From contig JBCBWU010000026.1 of the NCBI GenBank assembly GCA_039816955.1, positions 4,089 to 36,088 of the forward strand: a stretch of 32,000 nucleotides of DNA, read 5' to 3'. How positions within the stretch are numbered: position 1 is the stretch's first letter; the number at the start of each line of letters is the position of its first letter. Below, in pieces: positions 3,263-29,338 of this stretch. The notes under the pieces were generated by a model that saw only the letters and a list, made by a program, of their open reading frames with translations, had not been told where the DNA came from and searched no databases. Position numbers and translations under genes: made by a program. Source of the stretch: Bacteroidota bacterium. GTDB taxonomy: Bacteria; Bacteroidota; Bacteroidia; Chitinophagales; Saprospiraceae.

Positions 3263-4399
3263 TTATTTCACCCCCCGATTCCGCACCGGATTCGCATACA
3301 TCCCCAACAAATACTCCTTTCCTTCTTCATACTGCCCCTTTGGTACTTGCGTCAATAAGTCCTTGAAATAGGTAATAGCAGTTTCGCGATCTTGATTAGA
3401 ATAGTGCTGATCGAAATCAGCCCGGCCTTCCATCAGATCCAGGGCAGCGTAGTTGATGGCGTGTAGACCATAATTTTGGTGGATGGATTGATCTATCATT
3501 CCCACCATAGCGGCTAACCGCTTCTTATCGTTGGGTAGTTCGTTGAGTTGATCGATCGATGCGTTGAGCGGTTTGCCGAAGTGGAGGTGTACCTGCCCTT
3601 TTGGGCCAAAGATGCCCATGATAATGTGTTGAATATCTGCTTTGAAAGACTTTTTGTAATCTGGATTCTCCAGTTTTTGTAGGTGCTCCAGTGTCTTGGC
3701 AAGTGCCGTGGGGTCGTACTCGTAAGAGATGGCCACGGGGACGATATTCAGTTCTTTGAAGTGGGCTACTAAGTCGTCCTGCTTGCTCAGACTAAGCATT
3801 TTTAGGATACCTACTTGTGTAAAGTCATTCCCATCTTTAGCCCGACCTTCCCGCTGGGCAATCCAAATAGAATCTTGTCCGGATTGGATCATTTCGTGGA
3901 TGTAGCTCGACATCCGGATAGAATGTGAGTACAGCTCCCGTGGCGTGCCGGAGCGCAGTACCGCAAAGCTCTTATTGATCCGGAAAATGAGCTCCGCCAG
4001 ACGGTGCGTCATTAGGTTATCGCCAATAGCAATTTGGGTGGTGGTAAATCCAGCATCGTAAAGCGCTTTGTTGAGAAAAGCAGAGTCCAGGCCAATGTCC
4101 CGGTGGTTAGAAATGAAGAGGTATTTCTGTTGAGGATCCAACTGTTCCAAGCCGTTTACGGAAATGCCCGTCATGCTATACCGCTCAACAAAGCGCAAAA
4201 AGGGCAGCATCATCTTCTCTTGGAAATCAGCAGTGCTGTGTACCTCTGCTTTGGCCGCCAATAGCAAGTTGTGTATCTCCGTTGGCAATGCCCTTTGCAT
4301 ATGTTCCAGCAGACTAGGGCTGCTAAATAACTCCTGTACCGCAGCCTGTACCTCGGCATCCTCCAATACGCTTAAGCGAATTTCCTGGCCCTCCTTCAT
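3263..4399 (-). CDS. PlsC-family (glycerolipid/lysophospholipid) acyltransferase-like protein
   Basis: Contains FISNHRDIGLDSAF, an acyltransferase block I-like (NHxxxxD-type) motif, and a later IAQREGRAKDG block resembling the family. The ORF extends to 4459, but the Met at 4399 (MKEGQEI) is the more likely start. Confidence 0.65.
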   Translation of the reverse strand: MKEGQEIRLSVLEDAEVQAAVQELFSSPSLLEHMQRALPTEIHNLLLAAKAEVHSTADFQEKMMLPFLRFVERYSMTGISVNGLEQLDPQQKYLFISNHRDIGLDSAFLNKALYDAGFTTTQIAIGDNLMTHRLAELIFRINKSFAVLRSGTPRELYSHSIRMSSYIHEMIQSGQDSIWIAQREGRAKDGNDFTQVGILKMLSLSKQDDLVAHFKELNIVPVAISYEYDPTALAKTLEHLQKLENPDYKKSFKADIQHIIMGIFGPKGQVHLHFGKPLNASIDQLNELPNDKKRLAAMVGMIDQSIHQNYGLHAINYAALDLMEGRADFDQHYSNQDRETAITYFKDLLTQVPKGQYEEGKEYLLGMYANPVRNRGVK

Positions 4400-4594
4400 A
4401 CTTGTTTTTTGCTTGTTGGACTGGGCGCAAAGGTAAGTGGAAAAGCTGGAGCACTCCACACGGACCGGATGAAATTAGTGGGTGTAAGAGTAAACGACCA
4501 GTAGTCTGATACGAGAAAGGCAGAGGCTGACACTAATGGTCAACTTCTGCCCTTACCTAAGTCGCTAACAAGCTAGAGCTTAAAATAGCGGGTA

Positions 4595-5875
4595 TTAAGC
4601 AACCACTACTTTCTCCAACAACTGCCGCCTGCCTGGTCCCGTAGAAACCATCGCCACTGGTACGTTCAGGCGTGCTTCAATTTCTTCTACGTACTGCTGT
4701 GCCGCTTCCGGTAGCATGCCGTAGGTAGCCACTCTTTCCAAGCCGGACTTCCAGCCGCCAAATGATTCGTAAACGGGCTTACAATCCTCATCGCAGAGGT
4801 CGTAAGGGAGCTGTTCAGTCTGCTGGCCATTATTTTCGTAGGCTGTAGCCATCTTGATTTCGCCCAGCTTGTTCAGGACATCAATCTTGGTGACAACTAG
4901 CTGTGTGACGCCGTTGAGCATGATGGTGTAGCGCAGTTGCGGTAGGTCAATCCAGCCACAGCGGCGTGGGCGTCCGGTAGTAGCACCAAATTCGGCCCCT
5001 TCTTTCTGAAGGAACTCACCCATCTCATCAAATAGCTCGGTAGGGAAGGGGCCAGAGCCAACCCGCGTACAGTAAGCCTTGGTGATACCAATGACCTCAC
5101 CAATTTTTTGTGGGCTTACGCCCAAACCGGTACAAACTCCAGCGGTGATGGTGTTGGAAGAGGTTACAAAGGGATAAGTACCGTAGTCAATATCGAGCAT
5201 AGAACCCTGAGCACCTTCGGCCAGGATCCGCTTACCGGTGCGTAAGGCCTCATTGATGAAGTATTCCCCATTTACCAGTTTTAGCTGCCGCAAGCGTTCG
5301 ATAGCGGCCATCCACTTCTCTTCTTCGCCCGCCAGGTCAAATTCTACTTCTGGATAGATCTTCAGCAATTCCAGGTGCTTTGCCTTAAGGGCATTGTAGC
5401 GGTCCTGAAAATCACTGGCTTCCAAATCGCCTACCCGCAGACCATTGCGGCCTGTTTTATCCATGTAGGTAGGGCCAATTCCTTTCAGGGTAGAACCAAT
5501 CTTAGCTTTACCCTTGGCGTTTTCACTGGCTTTATCCAGGTAGCGGTGGGTGGGCAGGATAAGGTGTGCTTTGCGCGCTACAAACAGCCGCTCTGCGTAG
5601 TCTACTCCAGCAGCATCCAGCTCGTTCAGTTCTCGTTCCAATGTGATTGGGTCGATAACTACGCCGTTGCCGATGAGGTTGAGTTGTGCTTCTCGGAATA
5701 TACCCGATGGAATGGTGTGGAGCACGTGTTTTTTATCTTCAAAAACGAGGGTGTGTCCAGCGTTTGGGCCACCTTGGAAGCGGGCAATGATATCGTAGCG
5801 AGGGGCCAGATAATCAACCACTTTTCCTTTTCCTTCGTCGCCCCATTGGAGGCCGAGTAGTACATCTACCGTCAT
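4595..5875 (-). CDS. purA: adenylosuccinate synthase
   Basis: 426 aa with the P-loop-like QWGDEGKGK, then GGPNAGHT and GTTGRPRRCGW. These are canonical PurA signatures. Confidence 0.95.
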   Translation of the reverse strand: MTVDVLLGLQWGDEGKGKVVDYLAPRYDIIARFQGGPNAGHTLVFEDKKHVLHTIPSGIFREAQLNLIGNGVVIDPITLERELNELDAAGVDYAERLFVARKAHLILPTHRYLDKASENAKGKAKIGSTLKGIGPTYMDKTGRNGLRVGDLEASDFQDRYNALKAKHLELLKIYPEVEFDLAGEEEKWMAAIERLRQLKLVNGEYFINEALRTGKRILAEGAQGSMLDIDYGTYPFVTSSNTITAGVCTGLGVSPQKIGEVIGITKAYCTRVGSGPFPTELFDEMGEFLQKEGAEFGATTGRPRRCGWIDLPQLRYTIMLNGVTQLVVTKIDVLNKLGEIKMATAYENNGQQTEQLPYDLCDEDCKPVYESFGGWKSGLERVATYGMLPEAAQQYVEEIEARLNVPVAMVSTGPGRRQLLEKVVVA

Positions 5876-5940
5876 GCGGTGAATCTGTTTGTAAGAATGC
5901 TAGTGCCGCCGGTAGCTATTGGTTCGCCGATCCGCTGGCA

Positions 5941-6288
5941 TTACAATTCGTTGATCAGAGCAAGGGCTTCCTCCTCTGATTGGGTTATCGTAAATAACGG
6001 CCGGAGTTTAGTAACCTCCAGCAGTTGAATGATCTTATCTGAAATCTGCGACACAACGACCGCACCCGCTTGGTCTTGGCAGCGTGCCTGAAGGGAAATT
6101 AGAAAATTTAATCCGACACTATTGGTATAAGGCATCCCTCCTAAATTCACGACAAATTTAGTAAAACCCTGATCAATGCAATCTTGTGCAAGCTGAAGAA
6201 TTTCCCGGTTGGTGAATTCACTGAGCAGGCTATTCACCCGCAGGACTTTAATGTTGCCGACTTGGCTGATGGCGTAGGCTTGATCCAT
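5941..6288 (-). CDS. STAS domain protein (anti-sigma-factor antagonist-like)
   Basis: 115 aa with the SpoIIAA-like layout: KFVVNLGGMPYTNSVGLNFLISL contains the conserved Ser position, followed by LLEVTKLRPLF. Confidence 0.7.
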   Translation of the reverse strand: MDQAYAISQVGNIKVLRVNSLLSEFTNREILQLAQDCIDQGFTKFVVNLGGMPYTNSVGLNFLISLQARCQDQAGAVVVSQISDKIIQLLEVTKLRPLFTITQSEEEALALINEL

Positions 6289-6297
6289 GCCGCAAAA

Positions 6298-6804
6298 TTA
6301 GCGAACTTCCTCCACTTTGCTGTCGGTGGTACCTGCTTTACGGGTACGCTCACAAGCGCCCTGGCATTCGCCGTATAGGTTAAGAGAATGGTGAGTAATA
6401 TTGAACTGTAGTAGATCCCCCATCATACTCTTGATTTGCTGGATACGAGGGTCACAAAACTCCAGCACTTTACCACAGTCCACACAAATGATGTGATCAT
6501 GCTGCTTGTACCCGTAAGACTTCTCGTACTGGGCCAAGTTTTTGCCGAATTGGTGCTTGGTGACCAAATCACAGTTCACCAATAGTTCTAGCGTATTGTA
6601 TACTGTAGCCCGGCTGACGCGGTAGTTTTGCGTCTTCATGTGAATGTACAGCGCCTCGGCATCGAAATGGTCGGTGCGCTTGTATATTTCTTCCAGAATA
6701 GCGTAGCGCTCCGGCGTCTTGCGCAGGCCATTCTTCTCCAGGTGTGAGGAAAAGATATTCTTAACCGCCTCAATCGTACTCTTACTAGCTTCTTCTTTGA
6801 TCAT
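6298..6804 (-). CDS. fur: Fur family transcriptional regulator
   Basis: 168 aa with a winged-helix segment ([26 protein letters not shown]). It has the [15 protein letters not shown] CxxC metal site and a second Cys pair, CQGAC. Confidence 0.85.
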
Positions 6805-6813
6805 ATTGCAAAC

Positions 6814-9033
6814 TTACTCTATTCTAGTAACAGTTGAGATGTTCGACAAGTTTTTAAGTGCCCGTGTGGCTTGGTTCAGCTGGTCGGTATTGGCTACGAT
6901 TAAGCTGAGTTCTGATTCGAAAAAACCTTCCTTACCGGCGATGTTCATCGAACGAATGTTCAGCCCCATGAGCGATAACTGATGCGTCAGTCGCTCAATT
7001 ACACCAGGACCATCATCAATACCTGTGATCTTAAGTTTGGTCACAAAATTGGTCTGTGGCATATCATTTGCCCAATCGGCCTTCATAATCCGATAGCCGT
7101 AGTTGACCATCAGGTTGGTGGCATTAGGGCAGTTGATACGGTGAATCTTCAGACCCGCATTCGCCGTGAGGTAGGCAAATACCTTGTCTCCTTGCACAGG
7201 GTTGCAGCAAGTGGCCAGTGCGTAGTCGTACTGTTCACCTGGTTCACCGTTGATCAGTAAGCGTGGGGAAGTTGTATTTTCCTTGCGGGGGCGCTTGATT
7301 GGGATTTCCCGTTTTGGCACCTCTTGTACGGGCGGCTCCTCTACCAACTTCAATTTGCCGTGCTCTGCCTTGAACTTGCGGAAAATATCTACAATGCTGA
7401 TACTGTTCATGGCAATCGCATAGTACAGATCAACGTGGCTAACGAGCTTGTAATACTTTACTAGCGTGTCCATGGCTTCTTCGGGCACCTGAATCCGTAA
7501 GTTCTTAAACTTACGCTCTAGTGCTTCGCGACCTAATTCGCCTTGGCGTCTCCGATCCTCCTTCATGGCGGAGCGGATTTTTGCTTTAGCCTTGCCCGTA
7601 GTTACGAGCTTCAACCAGCTTTCAGAGGGCTTCTGATTATTACTGGTTACGACCTCAATTCGATCACCATTTTTGAGTAAGCGCCCCATGGGCACAATCT
7701 GGTTATCGATCTTAATGGCCGTACAGTGATAGCCTACATCAGAGTGGATACTGAAGGCAAAATCCAATGCTGTTGCGCCTTTCGGCAAAACGCGCATATC
7801 GCCCATAGGGGTGTATACGTAGACCTCCTCGTTGAAGAGGCTGTTAGATTTGAAGCTATCCAGGAACTCTACCGGACTGCCTTCCGGGTCTTCTAGGATT
7901 TCCCGTACACTATCGAGCCAGCGCTCGAAGACATCATCGGAATTGTTGACACCCTTGTATTTCCAGTGCGCTGCGAAACCGCGTTCGGCAATTTCGTCCA
8001 TGCGCTCGGTCCGAATTTGTACTTCCACGAAACGTCCGCTGGGGCCCACTACAGTTGTATGCAGTGATTCATAACCGTTGGCCTTGGGCGTGGTTATCCA
8101 ATCCTTGAGGCGTTCGGTAATGGGCTTGTGTACATCAGTGACGATACTGTACACTTGCCAGCAATATAATTTCTCCTTCTTCGGCGGAACATCCATGATG
8201 ATGCGGACGGCAAAGAGGTCATAAATTTCTTCGAAAGGAACCTGCTTATTCTTGAGCTTATTCCAAATGGAGTAGATCGACTTGGCCCGGCCAAAAATAC
8301 GGTACTTGATGCCAATTTCGTCAAGCTGCTCTTTCAAAGGCTCAATGAACGATTCAATATACGACTCGCGGCTTTTCTTGGTTTCTTGCAGCTTCTTGGC
8401 AATAGAAAAATAGTCTTCTGAATCGGTGATCTTCATACATAGATCCAGAAACTCCGTACGGAAAGCGTACAAGCCTAAGCGATGCGCCAGTGGGGCGTAG
8501 ATATAGCTGGTTTCGGCAGCAATCTTCAACTGCTTGTGCGGAGGCATGGCACCTAGTGTACGCATATTGTGCAGGCGGTCGGCCATTTTGATCAGCACAA
8601 TACGTACATCTTCTACCAGCGTACTAAGTACCTTCTTAAAATTCTCCGCTTGTGGGCTATCAGAATTGTAAGCACCGTCAAGTTTGGTTAAGCCATCTAC
8701 CATTTTGGCGATGCGCGTACCAAACTGTTTATGCAAGTCCGGTAAGGTGACGTCGGTATCTTCTACTACATCGTGAAGTAAAGCGGCTACGATTGCCGTA
8801 GGCCCCAAACCAATTTCTTCGGCACAGATTCGCGCTACCGCAATGGGATGCAGAATGTAGGGCTCCCCCGACTTACGTCGCTGAGAAGAGTGCGCTTCTA
8901 CCGCCAATTCGTAGGCCATACGAATGTTCTTACGGTCGGTATCATCCATTTTTTTGATTGACCGTAGCAATTGCCGGTAGGCATTCTGAATCAGTTTTTT
9001 TTCCTCCTCGGTTGAAGTTATTTCTCTTACCAT
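6814..9033 (-). CDS. bifunctional (p)ppGpp synthetase/hydrolase, RelA/SpoT homolog
   Basis: 739 aa with an HD hydrolase domain (HPIAVA..LLHDVVEDT). It has a synthetase core (YESLHTTV..EVQIRT), a TGS region (VYVYTPMGD) and a C-terminal ACT-like domain. Confidence 0.95.
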   Translation of the reverse strand: MVREITSTEEEKKLIQNAYRQLLRSIKKMDDTDRKNIRMAYELAVEAHSSQRRKSGEPYILHPIAVARICAEEIGLGPTAIVAALLHDVVEDTDVTLPDLHKQFGTRIAKMVDGLTKLDGAYNSDSPQAENFKKVLSTLVEDVRIVLIKMADRLHNMRTLGAMPPHKQLKIAAETSYIYAPLAHRLGLYAFRTEFLDLCMKITDSEDYFSIAKKLQETKKSRESYIESFIEPLKEQLDEIGIKYRIFGRAKSIYSIWNKLKNKQVPFEEIYDLFAVRIIMDVPPKKEKLYCWQVYSIVTDVHKPITERLKDWITTPKANGYESLHTTVVGPSGRFVEVQIRTERMDEIAERGFAAHWKYKGVNNSDDVFERWLDSVREILEDPEGSPVEFLDSFKSNSLFNEEVYVYTPMGDMRVLPKGATALDFAFSIHSDVGYHCTAIKIDNQIVPMGRLLKNGDRIEVVTSNNQKPSESWLKLVTTGKAKAKIRSAMKEDRRRQGELGREALERKFKNLRIQVPEEAMDTLVKYYKLVSHVDLYYAIAMNSISIVDIFRKFKAEHGKLKLVEEPPVQEVPKREIPIKRPRKENTTSPRLLINGEPGEQYDYALATCCNPVQGDKVFAYLTANAGLKIHRINCPNATNLMVNYGYRIMKADWANDMPQTNFVTKLKITGIDDGPGVIERLTHQLSLMGLNIRSMNIAGKEGFFESELSLIVANTDQLNQATRALKNLSNISTVTRIE

Positions 9034-9116
9034 AATTACTCCTGCTATTGTGCAGTAGCCATTTCGCTCTTTTGTGGTGCGATCAAAAACGCCCTTAATA
9101 CAATCCCATATACTAA

Positions 9117-9147
9117 TAATGGGTTAAGGGAATCCCAGAACCCATTA
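9117..9147 (-). terminator. hairpin downstream of the amidohydrolase gene (terminator-like, weak U-tract)
   Basis: A 9-bp perfect stem taatgggtt (9117-9125) / aacccatta (9139-9147), read directly. It lies 75 nt after the stop of the 9222-10505 gene on the minus strand. No clean U-run follows. Confidence 0.3.
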
Positions 9148-9221
9148 TAACAAATATAACGATTGAAAAGATTAAATGTGACAATCTACGCGAGGGAATT
9201 CGTTGATAGTCAGCAAAAAAG

Positions 9222-10505
9222 CTATTCTTGACGCTCGTATTTTGTCTTAAAACGTCTGTAAAGTTGATCTTGCTTGTTGTCAAGACTAATCTCACGGCCA
9301 CTAATGAAAGCGTGTTCTACTTGATTGGTGCGCATATCGAGGGCATCACCGCTTGTAATAATCAAAGAAGCATGCTTGCCTTCTTCAAGAGAACCCACTA
9401 ACTCATTAATGCCAAGGATACGGGCTGTGCTAAGGGTTAATGCCTCGACAGCTGCTTCGTAGGGTAAACCATAGCCTACCGCTGAACCCGCCTGGAAAGG
9501 CAGATTGCGCTGCTGCCAAAAGCCTTCGTTGCTGAGGCAAAACTCCACTCCCGCTTCGTGCAACGCGGCCGGGGTTTTGAAGGTCTGATCCACATCGCTA
9601 TCCAGGGTGTTGGGCAAGTCGTGGGTGGGTCCGTAAATGACGGGTACTTCGTATTCCGCAAGCATGTCGGCAATAAGGTAGCTTTCTGCGCCGCCTACCA
9701 GCACCATATCTACTCCAAAGGTTTTGGCTATTAAAACTGCTTGTTGAATATCCGGTGCAAGATTAGCGTGCACAAAGAGCTTTTGCTCACCATTAAATAG
9801 CCCGCAAGCAGAGGCTAGACGGAGATTGCGCTTGGTATTATCTGCTTCGCAGTAAGCCTTGGCTTGGAGCAAGAAATCCTCCACGGCTTCTACATCCTTT
9901 CCGTAGTTTTTGTTGGCTGACCATTTACCCTGCCGCCAGTTGTACGTACGGCGACGTGGCCAGCGCAAGTGGTGGCCATCATCGGTTTTTACCGCAGCGT
10001 CTTCCCAGTTCCAGGCGTCAAGCTGTACGACACTTGACTGGCCAGAAAGACGGCCTCCTTCGGGTACAATCTGGGCGTACAATACCCCACGCGCACGCAC
10101 GGTAGGCGTCACGTGCGAGTCCGTATTGTAAGCAATGATAGAACGGGCATTCGGATTCAGGCTCCCCACTTCAGCAATATCCCGGGTGGCACGTACCGCG
10201 CTGATCTCTACTATGCCCAGCGTGGTGTTGGGGGCGATAAAGCCCGGATAAATATGCTTACCCTCGGCATTGACTTGGCGGTGGTCACTGATGTCAACTT
10301 TTGCGGTAGCCTGGTCAACACGGGTGATTTTACCATCCTCAAAAGTGATGAGGGCATTTTCAATTACTTCCCCGTTACCCAAATGAGCCGTTCCACCTAC
10401 GATGGCTATCGGGCCATCCTGCGCAGGAGCAGGTATGGGCGGTTGCCCCAACAATAGCGTGCTAGCGCCAAGGGTGAGGAATAAAATATATATAGTCTGT
10501 TTCAT
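9222..10505 (-). CDS. amidohydrolase-family protein (secreted; lacks the canonical HxH metal motif)
   Basis: 427 aa with signal-like MKQTIYILFLTLGASTLLLGQ. It has the amidohydrolase N-terminal beta-sandwich pattern (ITFEDGKITRV..GKHIYPGFIAPNT) and the C-terminal EEGKHASLIITSGDALD pattern. The position where HxH normally sits reads APNTTLG. Confidence 0.7.
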   Translation of the reverse strand: MKQTIYILFLTLGASTLLLGQPPIPAPAQDGPIAIVGGTAHLGNGEVIENALITFEDGKITRVDQATAKVDISDHRQVNAEGKHIYPGFIAPNTTLGIVEISAVRATRDIAEVGSLNPNARSIIAYNTDSHVTPTVRARGVLYAQIVPEGGRLSGQSSVVQLDAWNWEDAAVKTDDGHHLRWPRRRTYNWRQGKWSANKNYGKDVEAVEDFLLQAKAYCEADNTKRNLRLASACGLFNGEQKLFVHANLAPDIQQAVLIAKTFGVDMVLVGGAESYLIADMLAEYEVPVIYGPTHDLPNTLDSDVDQTFKTPAALHEAGVEFCLSNEGFWQQRNLPFQAGSAVGYGLPYEAAVEALTLSTARILGINELVGSLEEGKHASLIITSGDALDMRTNQVEHAFISGREISLDNKQDQLYRRFKTKYERQE

Positions 10506-25474: not shown

Positions 25475-27337
25475 TTATTTTCCAATACAAAACTTCCCAA
25501 AAATATTTCCCAACAACTCATCCGTACTGATCTCCCCAGTGATCTCCCCGAGGTGATGCAAAGACCGCCGGATATCCATGGCGATAAAGTCAGAGGTAAT
25601 ACCACTATCCATTCCGGTGAGCACTGCATCCAGTGCTTCATAAGACTTCTCCAGCGCTTCGTAGTGGCGGGCATTACTCACAATGGTGCTATCTGTATTT
25701 ACTTTTTCGGAGACGACGGCCTCGTACAGTTTTTCTTTGAGGTAAGGCACATTCATGCCTTCTTTGGCGATGAGGGGAACCCAGGCATTCGGCTCAACCC
25801 CTAGCCCCTTCTCGCGAGAAGGGGTATCTGTGTGCTGCGGGAGTAGGGCTTGGCGTATCTGCTCAATCACACTCGCCAAATCATCGTAAATATCTTCGTT
25901 ACGGAACCGCAGCACTTGGTAACCCATCTCTTCTAATACCTCAGTCCTTTCTTCGTCCTTTAGTTTTACCTCAGGAAGCTGATGGTACCCGCCATCAATT
26001 TCTAGAATCAGTTTACGATCCAAACAGACAAAATCAGGAATAAAATGCCCAATCACATGCTGGCGCCGGAATTCACACCCCTCAATCTGCCGCTTTCTAA
26101 TATGTGGCCAAAGCTCCGCCTCCGCCTGCGTCGGATTATTTCGCAATTCCCTGGCCCTCTCTTTAAGTATGGAGTAGGTGTTTCGATCTGCAGTCAACCA
26201 CTTCCCAAGCGTAGTAGGAGCGCTTGCGCTACCTGCAATCTCCCCTCCTTGAGAGGAGGGGCCAGGGGAGGAGCGAAAATACTGCTCATACTTCGTATAC
26301 GGATTCAAATCCATCTTATTCGCCACTACCAACACGTGCATCCCTTCCTGCACTAGCTTGTTCAAATCTGCCCGTACTTCTTCCGGGGAGGTTTCAATGA
26401 CATCAAAGACGTACACCAGGAGGCTACTTTGCCGTACCTTCTCTAGCGTCTTCTCCACGCCGATGGCTTCAATGGTGTCTTCTGCTTCGCGAATACCGGC
26501 CGTATCGATGAGGCGGAACTGGATGCCTTCGATATTCAGGATTTCTTCAATGGTGTCGCGGGTGGTGCCGGCGATATCACTAACGATGGCACGTTCTTCG
26601 TTGAGCAGTGCGTTGAGGAGGGTGCTTTTGCCGGCATTGGGCCGACCAGCGATGACCGTACTTACTCCTTGCTTGATAACATTGCCGAGCTGAAAACTGT
26701 GAATCAACTGCCGGAGTACCCGTTGTATTTTTTCTACCAGCTGGCGTAAGTCGTCCCGGTTGGCAAATTCTACGTCTTCTTCACCAAAATCTAGTTCCAG
26801 TTCAATCAAGCTGGCAAAGTCGACTAGTTGCTGGCGGAGGGCAGCAATTTCATCACTGAAGCCACCGCGCATTTGTTGCATAGCCAAATCATGACTGCCG
26901 GCGGAGGAAGAGGCAATCAAATCCGCCACTGCTTCAGCCTGACTCAGGTCCATACGGCCGTTGAGGAAGGCGCGCATCGTAAATTCCCCGGCTTGGGCCA
27001 AACGTGCACCTTGGCGAATAAAGAGCCTGATGATCTCCTGGATGATATAATCGCTCCCGTGACAGCTTACCTCCACAACGTTTTCGCCGGTGTAGGATTT
27101 TGGACCTACAAAAAGGGTGACCAGTACCTCGTCTAGTATCTTGTCCTTCTCATCGCGGATGGTGCCGAAATGTACGGTGTGGGTGGCTTGCTGACTAAGG
27201 TCTTTGCCGCGGAATACACCGTTCACAATACTAATAGCCTTCGGGCCGGATAGGCGAATTACTCCAATTGCGCCCACTCCTTGCGGAGTAGCCAAGGCTA
27301 CAATCGTATCTGCTAAATTATGTGCGTTATAAGCCAT
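25475..27337 (-). CDS. mnmE: tRNA modification GTPase MnmE carrying an in-frame ~157-aa DUF559 endonuclease-domain insertion
   Basis: MnmE hallmarks are present. The N-terminal domain reads DTIVALATPQG.GAIGVIRLSG. The GTPase motifs are G1 GRPNAGKST, G2 region GTTRD, G3 DTAG and G4 NKMD. The C-terminal tetrapeptide motif is FCIGK. The length is 620 aa against about 454 aa for E. coli MnmE, and the excess lies between G4 and the G5-region LIAKEG. Confidence 0.9.
   Translation of the reverse strand: MAYNAHNLADTIVALATPQGVGAIGVIRLSGPKAISIVNGVFRGKDLSQQATHTVHFGTIRDEKDKILDEVLVTLFVGPKSYTGENVVEVSCHGSDYIIQEIIRLFIRQGARLAQAGEFTMRAFLNGRMDLSQAEAVADLIASSSAGSHDLAMQQMRGGFSDEIAALRQQLVDFASLIELELDFGEEDVEFANRDDLRQLVEKIQRVLRQLIHSFQLGNVIKQGVSTVIAGRPNAGKSTLLNALLNEERAIVSDIAGTTRDTIEEILNIEGIQFRLIDTAGIREAEDTIEAIGVEKTLEKVRQSSLLVYVFDVIETSPEEVRADLNKLVQEGMHVLVVANKMDLNPYTKYEQYFRSSPGPSSQGGEIAGSASAPTTLGKWLTADRNTYSILKERARELRNNPTQAEAELWPHIRKRQIEGCEFRRQHVIGHFIPDFVCLDRKLILEIDGGYHQLPEVKLKDEERTEVLEEMGYQVLRFRNEDIYDDLASVIEQIRQALLPQHTDTPSREKGLGVEPNAWVPLIAKEGMNVPYLKEKLYEAVVSEKVNTDSTIVSNARHYEALEKSYEALDAVLTGMDSGITSDFIAMDIRRSLHHLGEITGEISTDELLGNIFGKFCIGK
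25798..25824. repeat. terminal inverted repeat (promoter-distal end), containing a 10+10 palindrome
   Basis: The sequence is CCCCTAGCCCCTTCTCGCGAGAAGGGG. Its internal perfect palindrome ccccttctcg/cgagaagggg is at 25805-25824. It matches the reverse complement of 26242-26268 at 22 of 27 positions. Confidence 0.7.
26242..26268. repeat. terminal inverted repeat (promoter-proximal end), containing a 7-bp hairpin
   Basis: The sequence is CCCCTCCTTGAGAGGAGGGGCCAGGGG. Its internal hairpin is cccctcc (26242-26248) / ggagggg (26255-26261). It is the inverted partner of 25798-25824. Confidence 0.7.
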
Positions 27338-28104
27338 TATTCCTCAAATATGCGCTCTACCAGTGTGGGGTCCATTACAAAAGGGTTGGCCTTGCCATCT
27401 TGGTAGCGTCCTATCGACTGGCTGCGCTCTATTTCCCATTGATCGGGTGGGTCAAGAACGTGCCAATAGCGTAGTGTAAACAACTGATCGCTCAAAAAGC
27501 TTACTTCTACCTGATCATTGTACATCACGTATACGTAAAACATGGCGCGCGCCACGTCTCCTTTCTTGTCTTCCGGAGGCTCAAAGTAGCCTTGACCTAG
27601 TTCACTATAGCGATCGCGAACATCTGCTGTCGGAACGCGCCGCAGGTTTTGTTGACGGTAGTACCAGTGGGTAGCCTGCTCATCATCTACCTCGCCGAAG
27701 GGGTGATTACCACGCGCTTGGTTTACGCTGGCTAGTACAGCAAATAAATGATGCATGTCGCTTTTGGCATTTCCCTGTTTGGTGCCTTTGCTTTGTGGCC
27801 AAATGTGCTCACAGTTCATGCCGGTATCAGCGCCATCGTCAAAAATATACTTGGTAGGATCGTGCCGGTCTGATAAGTGATGGGCATAGCCAGTGTAAGG
27901 GCAGTAGATACTGTCTTGCTGGCGGTCGATGAGTGCATAAAGCGTATCGCGCGCCTGGCCATAGCTCAATACCGTTCTGGGGCGATAGGCTTCTTGTAGT
28001 GCTATCGCTAATTCGGTGCCACGGAGGTTCGAAAAAATTGTTCCGTCCTGTGCCACAACAGGTTTGGTTAACACGATAAGGAGGATACACCAAAGTGCTC
28101 GCAT
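27337..28104 (-). CDS. endonuclease I family extracellular/periplasmic nuclease
   Basis: It shows the CEHIWPQSKG and DMHHLFAVLASVNQARGNHPFG motifs typical of the Endonuclease_1 (EndA/Vvn-like) family. The signal peptide MRALWCILLIVLTKPVVAQ begins at 28104, while the ORF-track start at 28149 would overlap the MFS gene. Its stop overlaps the mnmE ATG (TAATG). Confidence 0.75.
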   Translation of the reverse strand: MRALWCILLIVLTKPVVAQDGTIFSNLRGTELAIALQEAYRPRTVLSYGQARDTLYALIDRQQDSIYCPYTGYAHHLSDRHDPTKYIFDDGADTGMNCEHIWPQSKGTKQGNAKSDMHHLFAVLASVNQARGNHPFGEVDDEQATHWYYRQQNLRRVPTADVRDRYSELGQGYFEPPEDKKGDVARAMFYVYVMYNDQVEVSFLSDQLFTLRYWHVLDPPDQWEIERSQSIGRYQDGKANPFVMDPTLVERIFEE

Positions 28105-28105
28105 C

Positions 28106-29338
28106 TTAGCTTTTTTCTTTTTGACGACCGAAAAATATAATGAATACAATCCAGCCCGCTAGAACCAATCCACTACCCACGATGATCGGCAGGCTACTAA
28201 AGAAAGTGATCAGATAACCGCCTACCAGTGAAGGGATCAATTGCCCTAAAGACTGCATGGATTGATTGATTCCTAATATCTCTCCCTGCTGATCTTCGTT
28301 CGCCTGCATGGAAATTGTAGCAGTTAGGTTAGGAGAGGTGATGCCTTGTGCAACGGCAATTAAAGGATTAAGCATATATAATCCCAAGGTGGTATCTGGT
28401 AGCAATACAAAAACAAGGGAAGCACTTAACGCCAGTATACTGTAAGTGAGAATACGCTGTGGCGGAAAACGTTTTCCCAAGAAGCGTACGAGTACACCTT
28501 GGGTAAGAGCTAACCAAATCCCTACCCAGCCAAAAAGAAAGCCGATGTCTTTTTCCGAATACGAAAAATCTTGGATCAGGTATACCGAATAAAACTGTGT
28601 AAAGAAGGTAAAACCAAGGGAGAGTAGTAAAACTACAATGAAGATCCGTCGCAAGTTAGGGGTGCCAAAAGAGATCGCCAGATTGCGAAAGCCCGTAAAT
28701 GGATTAACCGCCACTGTTCGTCGCTGCTTGAGCGTTTCAGGGAAGGCGTAAATAATAAACAGCACATTAAATGCTGTCAAAATCGCAGTAAACCAGAAGG
28801 GAGTGGAGGCGGTAAACCAGGATACAATGCTTTCGTCGGCTAAAACTCCGCCTAGAGTGGGGCCTAGAATAAAACCGATACCAAATGCCATTCCTACTAG
28901 CCCAAAATTGCGCGCCTTGTCTTTATCATTGCTCACATCTGCGATGCTAGATAGAATAACGGCGATATTCCCCCCCGTAAAACCAGGAATCATGCGGGAG
29001 ATAAATAACAATGGAATATTCTGCCAAAGGATGGCCACCGCTAGCAAAAGATAGCCGAGTAAAGTGCCGGCCTGGGTAACAAGTAGAACCGGTTTTCGAC
29101 CATAACGATCGGACAGACTTCCCAACATCGGGGCCCCAAAGAACTGCATTAGGGGAAACACCCCTAGTAATGCACCATACAGGAAGGAACGTTCCGACTC
29201 AGACATAGTGAGGGGAACAATACTGGTTTCGGGTTCAAAAAATAAAGCGGGGAGAACAGGAATGATAATTCCTACTCCAAGCATATCAATGAATACCGTC
29301 AGGAAAATGGTAAAGAGTGGCGAACGAGAGTTCTTCAT
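28106..29338 (-). CDS. MFS transporter (drug:H+ antiporter / TCR-Tet-like)
   Basis: 410 aa with about 12 hydrophobic segments. MFS motif A reads GSLSDRYGRKPVLL after TM2, and the N-terminus FLTVFIDMLGVGIIIPVLP is typical of Tet-like MFS proteins. Confidence 0.85.
   Translation of the reverse strand: MKNSRSPLFTIFLTVFIDMLGVGIIIPVLPALFFEPETSIVPLTMSESERSFLYGALLGVFPLMQFFGAPMLGSLSDRYGRKPVLLVTQAGTLLGYLLLAVAILWQNIPLLFISRMIPGFTGGNIAVILSSIADVSNDKDKARNFGLVGMAFGIGFILGPTLGGVLADESIVSWFTASTPFWFTAILTAFNVLFIIYAFPETLKQRRTVAVNPFTGFRNLAISFGTPNLRRIFIVVLLLSLGFTFFTQFYSVYLIQDFSYSEKDIGFLFGWVGIWLALTQGVLVRFLGKRFPPQRILTYSILALSASLVFVLLPDTTLGLYMLNPLIAVAQGITSPNLTATISMQANEDQQGEILGINQSMQSLGQLIPSLVGGYLITFFSSLPIIVGSGLVLAGWIVFIIFFGRQKEKS

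Follow-up and report, generated by a model that had tools for sequence, protein, structure and literature searches.

A DUF559 nuclease gene inserted in mnmE between structured inverted ends points to a candidate family of selfish DNA cassettes

We analyzed a 32,000-nucleotide (nt) stretch of DNA from a Bacteroidota bacterium of the family Saprospiraceae (GenBank assembly GCA_039816955.1, contig JBCBWU010000026.1, positions 4,089 to 36,088; hereafter, the window). Its mnmE gene carries an in-frame insert of 483 nt that encodes a Vsr-like PD-(D/E)xK nuclease domain, DUF559, and is bounded by inverted repeats. We conclude that these repeats are probably the two functional termini of a selfish DNA cassette carrying the DUF559 gene, a reading to which we assign a probability of about 0.65. 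It builds on the anatomy of the cassette, on constraint acting on both its ends and its nuclease, on an association between DUF559 and such ends that was found from either direction, on multi-copy units that lack the nuclease cargo, and on the turnover of alleles at the mnmE site.

Results

Anatomy of the cassette

The host gene and the parts of the cassette are listed below in window coordinates.

25475..27337, minus strand: mnmE, the host gene, 620 amino acids (aa), or 459 aa without the cassette; defined by its open reading frame (ORF) and Pfam.
25792..26274, minus strand: the whole cassette, 483 nt (161 codons), in frame between G4 and G5 of MnmE.
26262..26274, minus strand: 5' outer run GCTCCTCCCCTGG, containing TCCTCCCC, which mirrors the neighboring arm CCCCTCCT.
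26242..26261, no strand assigned: 5' hairpin CCCCTCCT-CTCA-AGGAGGGG, 8 bp; from repeat search and folding.
26168..26241, minus strand: variable linker, then a conserved N-terminal helix (W..TA...Y..LKE.A) before the Pfam core.
25844..26167, minus strand: DUF559 (PF04480), the Vsr-like PD-(D/E)xK nuclease domain; Pfam E 3.6e-35.
25825..25843, minus strand: C-terminal linker; predicted local distance difference test (pLDDT) <50 at residues 501-511.
25805..25824, no strand assigned: 3' hairpin CCCCTTCTCG/CGAGAAGGGG; from repeat search and folding.
25792..25804, minus strand: 3' spacer CTA and outer run GGGGTTGAGC, a mirror of the purine arm GAGAAGGGG in which T stands opposite A.

The borders were set by the arms of the terminal inverted repeats (TIRs) and by alignment with a second type of cassette at the same site (type-B allele, L084), an empty allele (L081) and a remnant (L083). 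An initial annotation of the window had described imperfect inverted repeats of about 27 nt around a 471-bp unit. The end sequences that it quoted are exact to the letter: positions 25798-25824 read CCCCTAGCCCCTTCTCGCGAGAAGGGG, and the reverse complement of 26242-26268 reads CCCCTGGCCCCTCCTCTCAAGGAGGGG. Both the agreement at 22 of 27 positions and the observation that differences 13 and 22 are the two partners of a single stem pair were reproduced. The repeat is real, but its true arms are 33 nt long (25792-25824 and 26242-26274; 79% complementary in a repeat search of the window), and the unit measures 483 nt, or 161 codons, instead of 471. The argument that 471 equals 3 x 157, and hence that the insertion preserves the frame, is arithmetic that holds trivially for any intact host ORF. 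The hairpin at each end (25805-25824 and 26242-26261) was confirmed, as were the linker peptides SSPGPSSQGGE and PSREKGLGVE in the mnmE frame. Each end also has a third component that had been missed, an outer run of 13 nt that is the mirror of the hairpin arm beside it. In order, the 5' end of the cassette reads TCCTCCCC-tgg-CCCCTCCT-ctca-AGGAGGGG, and the 3' end reads CCCCTTCTC-gc-GAGAAGGGG-cta-GGGGTTGAG.

Within the window the pattern CCCCT-N10-AGGGG occurs at two sites only, the cassette ends, where 0.08 would be expected in 32 kb; the 32-kb window holds no second copy of the cassette. The initial annotation had allowed that shuffled-sequence statistics might dissolve the repeat. The best ungapped inverted-match score of the cassette ends, 19, was reached by 0/5000 mononucleotide shuffles and by 1/5000 shuffles that preserve the purine/pyrimidine pattern; thus, the inverted repeat beats chance and that objection falls away. 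Single-sequence DNA folding gives the ends no exceptional stability (-8 to -9 kcal/mol, z -1.4 to -2.1), so support for the end structure is comparative, thermodynamics aside.

Pfam identifies TrmE_N, MMR_HSR1 and a split MnmE_helical domain on the host ORF, whose product is identical to a protein annotated as MnmE by NCBI (P0086, from an NCBI Bacteroidota metagenome-assembled genome, MAG). The insert lies between G4 (N340-K341-x-D343) and G5 (A524). Excision of the 483-nt unit restores EQYF-P-NAWVP in frame, and in the reconstructed empty site GAGCAGTATTTTC directly abuts CGAATGCCTGG.

The nuclease domain

The assignment of the insert to DUF559 holds (residues 391-498, E 3.6e-35, 120.6 bits against a Pfam cut-off of 20.6). 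DUF559 is the sole Pfam domain encoded by the cassette, which encodes no transposase of a known class. By sequence, it matches the PDB entries 3hrl (E 1.4e-19) and, weakly and distantly, 3r3p (I-Bth0305I; E 0.025). The acidic and histidine active-site residues D435, E446, D448 and H452, which form the pattern D...ExD...H, are invariant in 83 family sequences and intact in the window copy. Between the window and orthologues with the same cassette type (type A), the nonsynonymous divergence (dN) of the DUF559 core is 0.08-0.13 versus 0.03-0.05 for MnmE, with a synonymous divergence (dS) of about 2 or undefined; amino-acid identity of the core is 82-89% among the window, L085 and L001, and 57-70% against L002 and L003. 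Judged from such sequence comparisons, the nuclease domain is under purifying selection. In an AlphaFold model of low confidence (pLDDT 66; predicted template modeling score, pTM, 0.37), DUF559 folds as a unit of its own and has a disordered linker on either side. The variable linker at 26168..26241 is weakly conserved at every codon position, with pLDDT <50 at residues 357-382.

Constraint on the ends at the nucleotide level

In orthologues whose synonymous sites are saturated, third-codon-position identity is 0.83 in the termini, versus 0.46-0.54 in MnmE and the DUF559 core. The 24 codons that span both termini are conserved equally at all three positions, and the adjoining linkers are poorly conserved. 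Since the termini are conserved at third positions like the others, the constraint acts on nucleotides, and the protein is not the target.

Pairing within the stems is likewise maintained. The 3' hairpin is 99% paired in 11 mnmE orthologues, and one of its pairs is C-G in 6, T-A in 4 and T.G in 1; the 5' hairpin is 96% paired across the same 11, with 0 double changes. The initial annotation had seen covariation in the difference between the two ends and had concluded that the structure itself is under selection. Selection on the end structure is supported by the third-position identity of 0.83 together with the compensatory pair in the 11 orthologues. The covariation itself is present, although within 11 mnmE orthologues alone it is thin and probably records one event. 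The outer run follows the stem: its T/G covaries with the A/G of the arm in 11/11 orthologues, of which four combine T-A with T, six combine C-G with G, and one combines T.G with G. Between lineages the stem sequences vary, and the arms remain complementary.

Three further ideas about the ends were set aside. A T:G mismatch in CCWGG context, a Vsr substrate, was considered for the outermost CCCCTGG/CTAGGGG and ruled out, as these bases vary freely among orthologues. The ends might also have been "ORF-friendly" by design, with 82% stop-free frames versus 66.5% for genomic segments, but composition-matched shuffles give 81%, so stop-free ends are a by-product of GC content in which arrangement is irrelevant. 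A sub-threshold Rfam match to ZMP-ZTP RNA (22 bits versus 39, E 0.46) was taken as chance.

A mirror run and a triplex-like layout

Beyond each hairpin lies a 3-nt spacer, followed by a run that mirrors the adjacent arm. Across the family of loci described below, the mirror match beats the direct-repeat match in 74 ends, and the reverse is true in 6. We scored triple compatibility by purine-motif rules (G.G-C, A.A-T and T.A-T). With a spacer of 3, 80% of positions family-wide are triple-compatible, compared with 45-56% for other spacers and 60% for the direct orientation. When outer runs were permuted among ends, compatibility was 61 +/- 1.2%, and 0/2000 permutations attained the observed 80%. 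The type-B cassette has two ends with unlike arms, and each arm is matched by its own outer run.

Read from its letters, this layout of C-rich stem, loop, G-rich stem, 3-nt loop and mirror stem is that of the intrastrand triplex motif of BoxC/PIT/TMECO type. Such repeats have been known since the 1990s (PMC4666352) and were treated by Hoyne et al. 2000, as cited in PMC4666352, and by Holder et al. 2015 (PMC4666352). The TMECO motif folds into a triplex in vitro, and the triplex motif is multi-copy in >260 genomes and linked to local rearrangement and genome instability (PMC4666352). In the published descriptions, BoxC/PIT/TMECO repeats always lie between genes and have no mobility gene associated with them, and the authors state that a mobility function was not found (PMC4666352). 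The TMECO consensus CCCTCNCCC-N3-6-GGGNGAGGG-N3-GGGNGAGGG has no match in the window; among the loci collected here, only L070 and E. coli L093 match it.

Turnover of alleles at the mnmE site

Alleles were collected by a search with MnmE minus the insert. A clade of MnmE proteins at >=83% identity carries a DUF559 insert, and presence/absence polymorphism was found at this one mnmE loop, which is filled, empty or remnant depending on the allele. Among close relatives, P0103 (466 aa, loop YEHYFPENEQLIPEENWVP) is empty; P0102 retains a 90-nt remnant in which both outer ends are kept and the nuclease is gone; and P0139 is a partially deleted mnmE insert. Two cassette types share the loop: type A, present in the window, and type B, which has other ends and a DUF559 with 40-60% DNA identity to that of type A. 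In L085 (type A) and L084 (type B), the mnmE DNA is 97-100% identical on either side of the insert, and the identity breaks sharply after GAGCAGTACTT and before AAGACAACTGGG. In P0108 and P0096, type B is nested between leftover type-A ends, and in P0097 the left end is duplicated in tandem. In Lewinella cohaerens, the genome scan recovered one cassette locus. The window copy is an old resident, inherited mostly vertically.

The same MnmE loop holds other material. In Lewinellaceae and Phaeodactylibacter, low-complexity inserts of 20-60 aa, free of DUF559, occupy it (P0175, P0183, P0191, P0199, P0203, P0157 and P0124), with repeats such as GSRKSE and SDFPLP. Insertions are tolerated in this G4-G5 loop of MnmE, which is a hot spot for them in general.

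DUF559 cassettes in other genes and lineages

A genome scan with the 160-aa insert, in which selection was by DUF559 similarity alone, yielded 80 loci, mostly from Bacteroidota, with some from Ignavibacteria, Chloroflexota and Patescibacteria. At many of these loci, DUF559 lies in frame within a long ORF with host Pfam domains on both sides; the hosts include IleRS, LeuRS, an IcmF-like MeaB-mutase fusion, IspG, acetyl-CoA synthetase, GH31 and RecQ. The IleRS cassette occupies one site, after HYPFE, in four lineages, and the IcmF-like fusion carries the cassette at two different sites. An exhaustive profile-free search returned 24,481 DUF559 cluster representatives at 50% identity. Among 149 sequences fetched from the best 150 representatives, 68 are >=250 aa; inspection of twenty of these long proteins extends the list of hosts to MetH, RibD, CinA, adenine deaminase, SpoIIE phosphatases and DNA methylases, among others, the host domain often being split in two by DUF559. 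Carriage by phages was rejected, as a search of 2.9 million viral contigs gave one distant match.

At nearly every one of the 80 loci, free-standing or embedded, DUF559 has on either side a GC-rich hairpin whose 5' arm is pyrimidine and whose 3' arm is purine. The two ends are genuine inverted copies of each other, loop asymmetries included. The 4.5% of bases beside DUF559 contain 136 of the 270 hairpins found, where 12 would be expected. This enrichment at DUF559 edges supports the earlier suggestion of a family of elements with DUF559 as cargo. Around free-standing copies, the hairpins come before the start and after the stop. The initial annotation had also proposed a check of where copies lie, and end-flanked copies were found both free-standing and in frame in other genes.

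Related cassettes occur in different settings. Mucilaginibacter has related cassettes with related ends in LeuRS and IcmF, Prevotellaceae have them in IspG and as free-standing genes, and Ignavibacteria have them in unrelated flanks, two within one MAG. We also looked at vertical versus horizontal history for the IleRS cassettes, where host identity is 63-74% and DUF559 identity is 59-64%.

Some architectures depart from the internal insert. In L032, L033 and L039 (4890-5843), an RNase H domain protein carries DUF559 in frame at its N-terminus, and DUF559 is joined to the IspG C-terminus in L010 and L012; terminal fusions therefore exist besides internal ones. Tandem DUF559 proteins (P0206, P0207, P0209 and P0210) have two or three domains each: P0206, of 377 aa, has three, and P0210, an Eco57I-like methylase, has two.

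Cargo-less units

The same 80 loci contain 25 units made of a left end and a right end, 85-225 nt long and free of DUF559, of which 10 lie inside ORFs of >=200 aa. At L057, one unit is present in three near-identical copies, one of which departs from the others by a single base. A GH31 gene holds one of the copies in frame, and a 754-aa ORF holds two in frame, where each encodes the peptide SPTSLPPxPSCRGGESTAQKASPTGGGLEGAGGLEGA. At L026, a 31-nt left end is identical between a cargo-less unit and the DUF559 cassette of that locus. The proposal that the element behaves like a miniature transposable element with inverted repeats (MITE) is thus supported by multi-copy cargo-less units with the same ends, some of them in frame in genes. 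In Prevotellaceae, the unit of L057 is multi-copy and the unit of L026 shares its left end with a DUF559 cassette; type A of the window is single-copy.

Two side observations concern these units. The L057 GH31 ORF (3390-6494) holds three in-frame inserts, namely two cargo-less units and a DUF559 cassette, and the neighboring 754-aa ORF (8105-10369) holds one unit twice, an extreme tolerance of in-frame selfish DNA. Prevotellaceae also have cargo-less units of 130-150 nt with an AT-rich interior that stop 3-5 nt before a downstream ATG (L026 3561-3705; L027 2796-2945, 3575-3704 and 6534-6663; L028 2658-2808 and 6534-6663); these might supply promoters or 5' leaders.

Searching from the ends, and the E. 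coli gene ycjD

For the reverse test, 133 end motifs, covering 816 kb, were selected in metagenomes with DNA pattern as the sole criterion. DUF559 is present at ten of these loci; in 9/10 it lies within 250 nt of a motif, and in 9/9 it is on the predicted interior side. In E. coli K-12, the DUF559 gene ycjD has TMECO no. 9 of 23 on its own strand, 170 nt downstream, a proximity whose chance is roughly 0.002. The ycjD region is present in 3377/5426 complete E. coli genomes. In Anaerolineales, the DUF559 of L070 has exact TMECO-pattern matches on its flanks.

The ycjD locus of K-12 (L093, minus strand; 6206-6240, 6310-6430) has further features. The final ~50 nt of ycjD occur again between the gene and TMECO no. 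9, as if they were the leftover of a second or older copy, and the stop codon of the gene is overlapped by a degenerate hairpin. A clean empty site was ruled out, since ycjD-negative genomes hold efflux genes there. The inverted TMECO pairs of E. coli (1+2, 7+8, 10+11, 12+13 and 17+18) have outer runs that face each other ~16-30 nt apart (PMC4666352 Table 1). Their orientation, right end then left end, is opposite to that of the Bacteroidota cargo-less units, and the pairs could be junctions of abutting elements or another element design. Among 24 chromosomes listed, those with ycjD have 10-23 query-matching places (mostly the triplex motif) and those lacking it have 1-10, a comparison that phylogroup confounds; it is suggestive of a link between motif copy number and DUF559 in E. 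coli.

Discussion

A model for the cassette and the points against it

In the explanation that we favor, each terminus runs from a pyrimidine arm through a short loop to a purine arm, which a 3-nt spacer separates from a mirror purine run. The outer runs face outward, so that the two ends make 33-nt inverted repeats. Because the cassette occupies a surface loop in the G domain of MnmE and keeps the frame, the nuclease is translated within MnmE, and because the GC-rich ends read as Pro/Ser/Leu-rich and Gly/Glu/Arg-rich flexible linkers, the host protein tolerates the insert. The nuclease may recognize or cut either the structured ends or the site when it is unoccupied; recombination or repair by the host would then copy or exchange the cassette, and cargo-less units could be mobilized in trans. 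DUF559 would, in effect, be the mobilizing enzyme of these cassettes.

Several points weigh against this explanation. To our knowledge, no lone PD-(D/E)xK nuclease catalyzes strand transfer, and both the nuclease activity of DUF559 and the mobility of the cassette are properties that we infer. Neither a target-site duplication of >=2 nt nor a common target motif was found at the mnmE junctions or at the multi-copy cargo-less units. Autonomous forms have few copies. The type-A cassette occurs in mnmE only, as a single copy, with synonymous sites saturated between orthologues; therefore, the window copy may no longer move. The replacement of type A by type B could be ordinary homologous exchange between strains. 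In the reverse test, only about 9% of end motifs adjoin DUF559. A Flavobacterium subgroup with free-standing DUF559 (L052, L056, L058, L061, L068 and L069) is without such hairpins, and the end association therefore covers a large subfamily, with some DUF559 genes outside it. Finally, the triplex at these cassette ends is putative, as the in vitro data belong to TMECO.

Alternative explanations

The cassette might instead spread by pure site-specific homing, in which DUF559 cuts the empty allele, double-strand-break repair copies the cassette, and the ends have no role in mobility but are flexible linkers or limiters of co-conversion. A family of Vsr-like homing endonucleases is documented (PMC2677866, PMC3239194), and DUF559 distantly matches the catalytic domain of I-Bth0305I. 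The occupation of one and the same site in IleRS across different classes of Bacteroidota, and in mnmE throughout a clade, the low copy number per genome, and the fact that no target-site duplication was seen all suit such homing. However, it leaves unexplained the conservation of the inverted ends at third codon positions, the covariation of arm and outer run, the multi-copy cargo-less units at unrelated sites and the related cassettes in different genes. Moreover, the insert is read through in frame, without a Hint domain or an Rfam intron to house it. We therefore regard homing alone as unlikely. That the domain has been domesticated and fixed, serving MnmE or the cell (for example, as a tethered repair nuclease), with the repeats as fossils of an ancient insertion, is improbable. 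Long residence (dS saturated between orthologues), strong purifying selection on the nuclease domain and an insert in every clade MnmE at >=86% identity would fit a resident of this kind, but another cassette type has been swapped in at 97-100% identical flanks, and remnant, truncated and empty alleles are known. Fossil ends would lose their 0.83 third-position identity, and the same cassette layout is found in dozens of unrelated host proteins.

Another possibility is that the hairpins work in RNA, for example by affecting the stability or processing of the mRNA or by pausing translation, or that they are generic repeats or terminators that stand beside DUF559 by chance. Hairpins before the start and after the stop of free-standing copies are compatible with this idea, as is the T.G intermediate in the compensatory pair, which would be a G.U wobble in RNA. 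We nonetheless find it very improbable: an Rfam match is absent, termination would be harmful where hairpins lie inside essential coding regions, the window holds just these two such hairpins in 32 kb, and no strand is singled out because the ends are inverted. The mirror run, furthermore, suits purine-motif triples, which do not form in RNA (PMC4666352). An endonuclease-bearing insert in frame at a conserved site of a conserved protein recalls an intein or an intron that is removed after transcription or translation, but we find this barely conceivable here. No Hint or intein domain was found at Pfam E <= 0.01, only ~25 residues lie to either side of the nuclease, too few for an intein, the insert is followed by Pro where Ser, Thr or Cys is expected, an Rfam intron match is absent, and the frame is open across the insert in every host gene.

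Relation to known systems

IS200/IS605 elements have subterminal hairpins at both ends and produce no target-site duplication. They differ from the cassettes in their HUH transposase and in lacking terminal inverted repeats, and the cassettes give no sign of the single-strand route of IS200/IS605 "peel and paste." REP/REPIN-RAYT systems also place a single-copy gene between inverted hairpin repeats and scatter short doublets in the genome. Their enzyme is an HUH Y1 transposase, whereas here we find a Vsr-like nuclease, a mirror run and copies within coding sequences. BoxC/PIT/TMECO repeats share the layout of stem, loop, stem, 3 nt and mirror, often with T opposite A, and are multi-copy and found in inverted pairs; they are reported to be intergenic, whereas the ends described here bound a nuclease unit and lie in frame in genes.

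Among in-frame inserts, Rickettsia palindromic elements are palindromic repeats within unrelated genes that are tolerated as extra peptide (PMC10969869). An autonomous partner or encoded enzyme is not known for them, and in sequence and host phylum they are unrelated to the cassettes. The Vsr-like (EDxHD) homing endonucleases, such as I-Bth0305I, are small selfish nucleases of Vsr fold in conserved genes (PMC2677866, PMC3239194). In contrast to the cassettes, they reside in group I introns, inteins or gene-splitting ORFs, have N-terminal DNA-binding modules, are without structured inverted ends, and leave the host frame not read through. Inteins and ShiLan likewise place an endonuclease insert in frame in a conserved host protein, and ShiLan is neither intein nor intron and is predicted to loop out (PMC11855218). 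The splicing domain of inteins is absent from the cassette. ShiLan hides an out-of-frame HNH and is without structured inverted ends or cargo-less derivatives, whereas here the nuclease is in the host frame. Full-text searches gave no paper that ties DUF559 to mobile elements, in-frame insertion or triplex repeats. The components are known, but not their combination; the cassette family is large and apparently undescribed.

More tentatively, and with some doubt, we suggest that DUF559 may be the missing mobilizer of BoxC/PIT/TMECO-type repeats across bacteria. Together they would then form an unrecognized class of mobile element whose ends, a hairpin with a third strand, are read as non-B DNA by a Vsr-like nuclease, with autonomous copies that can persist in frame in essential genes and MITE-like copies without cargo.

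If these proposals are true, they would supply a function and a genomic logic for DUF559, still annotated as "endonuclease domain-containing protein," and a missing partner for the BoxC/PIT/TMECO triplex repeats. They would also add a route by which selfish nucleases enter essential proteins without protein or RNA splicing, and would bear on the evolution of protein domains and on the annotation of unexplained oversized IleRS, LeuRS, MnmE and MetH. The cassettes would offer compact, naturally tolerated insertion sites and linkers, and a nuclease that reads hairpins or triplexes would hold biochemical and biotechnological interest.

Neighboring gene

An Endonuclease_1 (PF04231) gene at 27337-28149 (minus strand) ends where mnmE starts, base 27337 being common to both. 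This synteny is kept in related contigs (L084, L087, L088 and L092) and is unrelated to the cassette.

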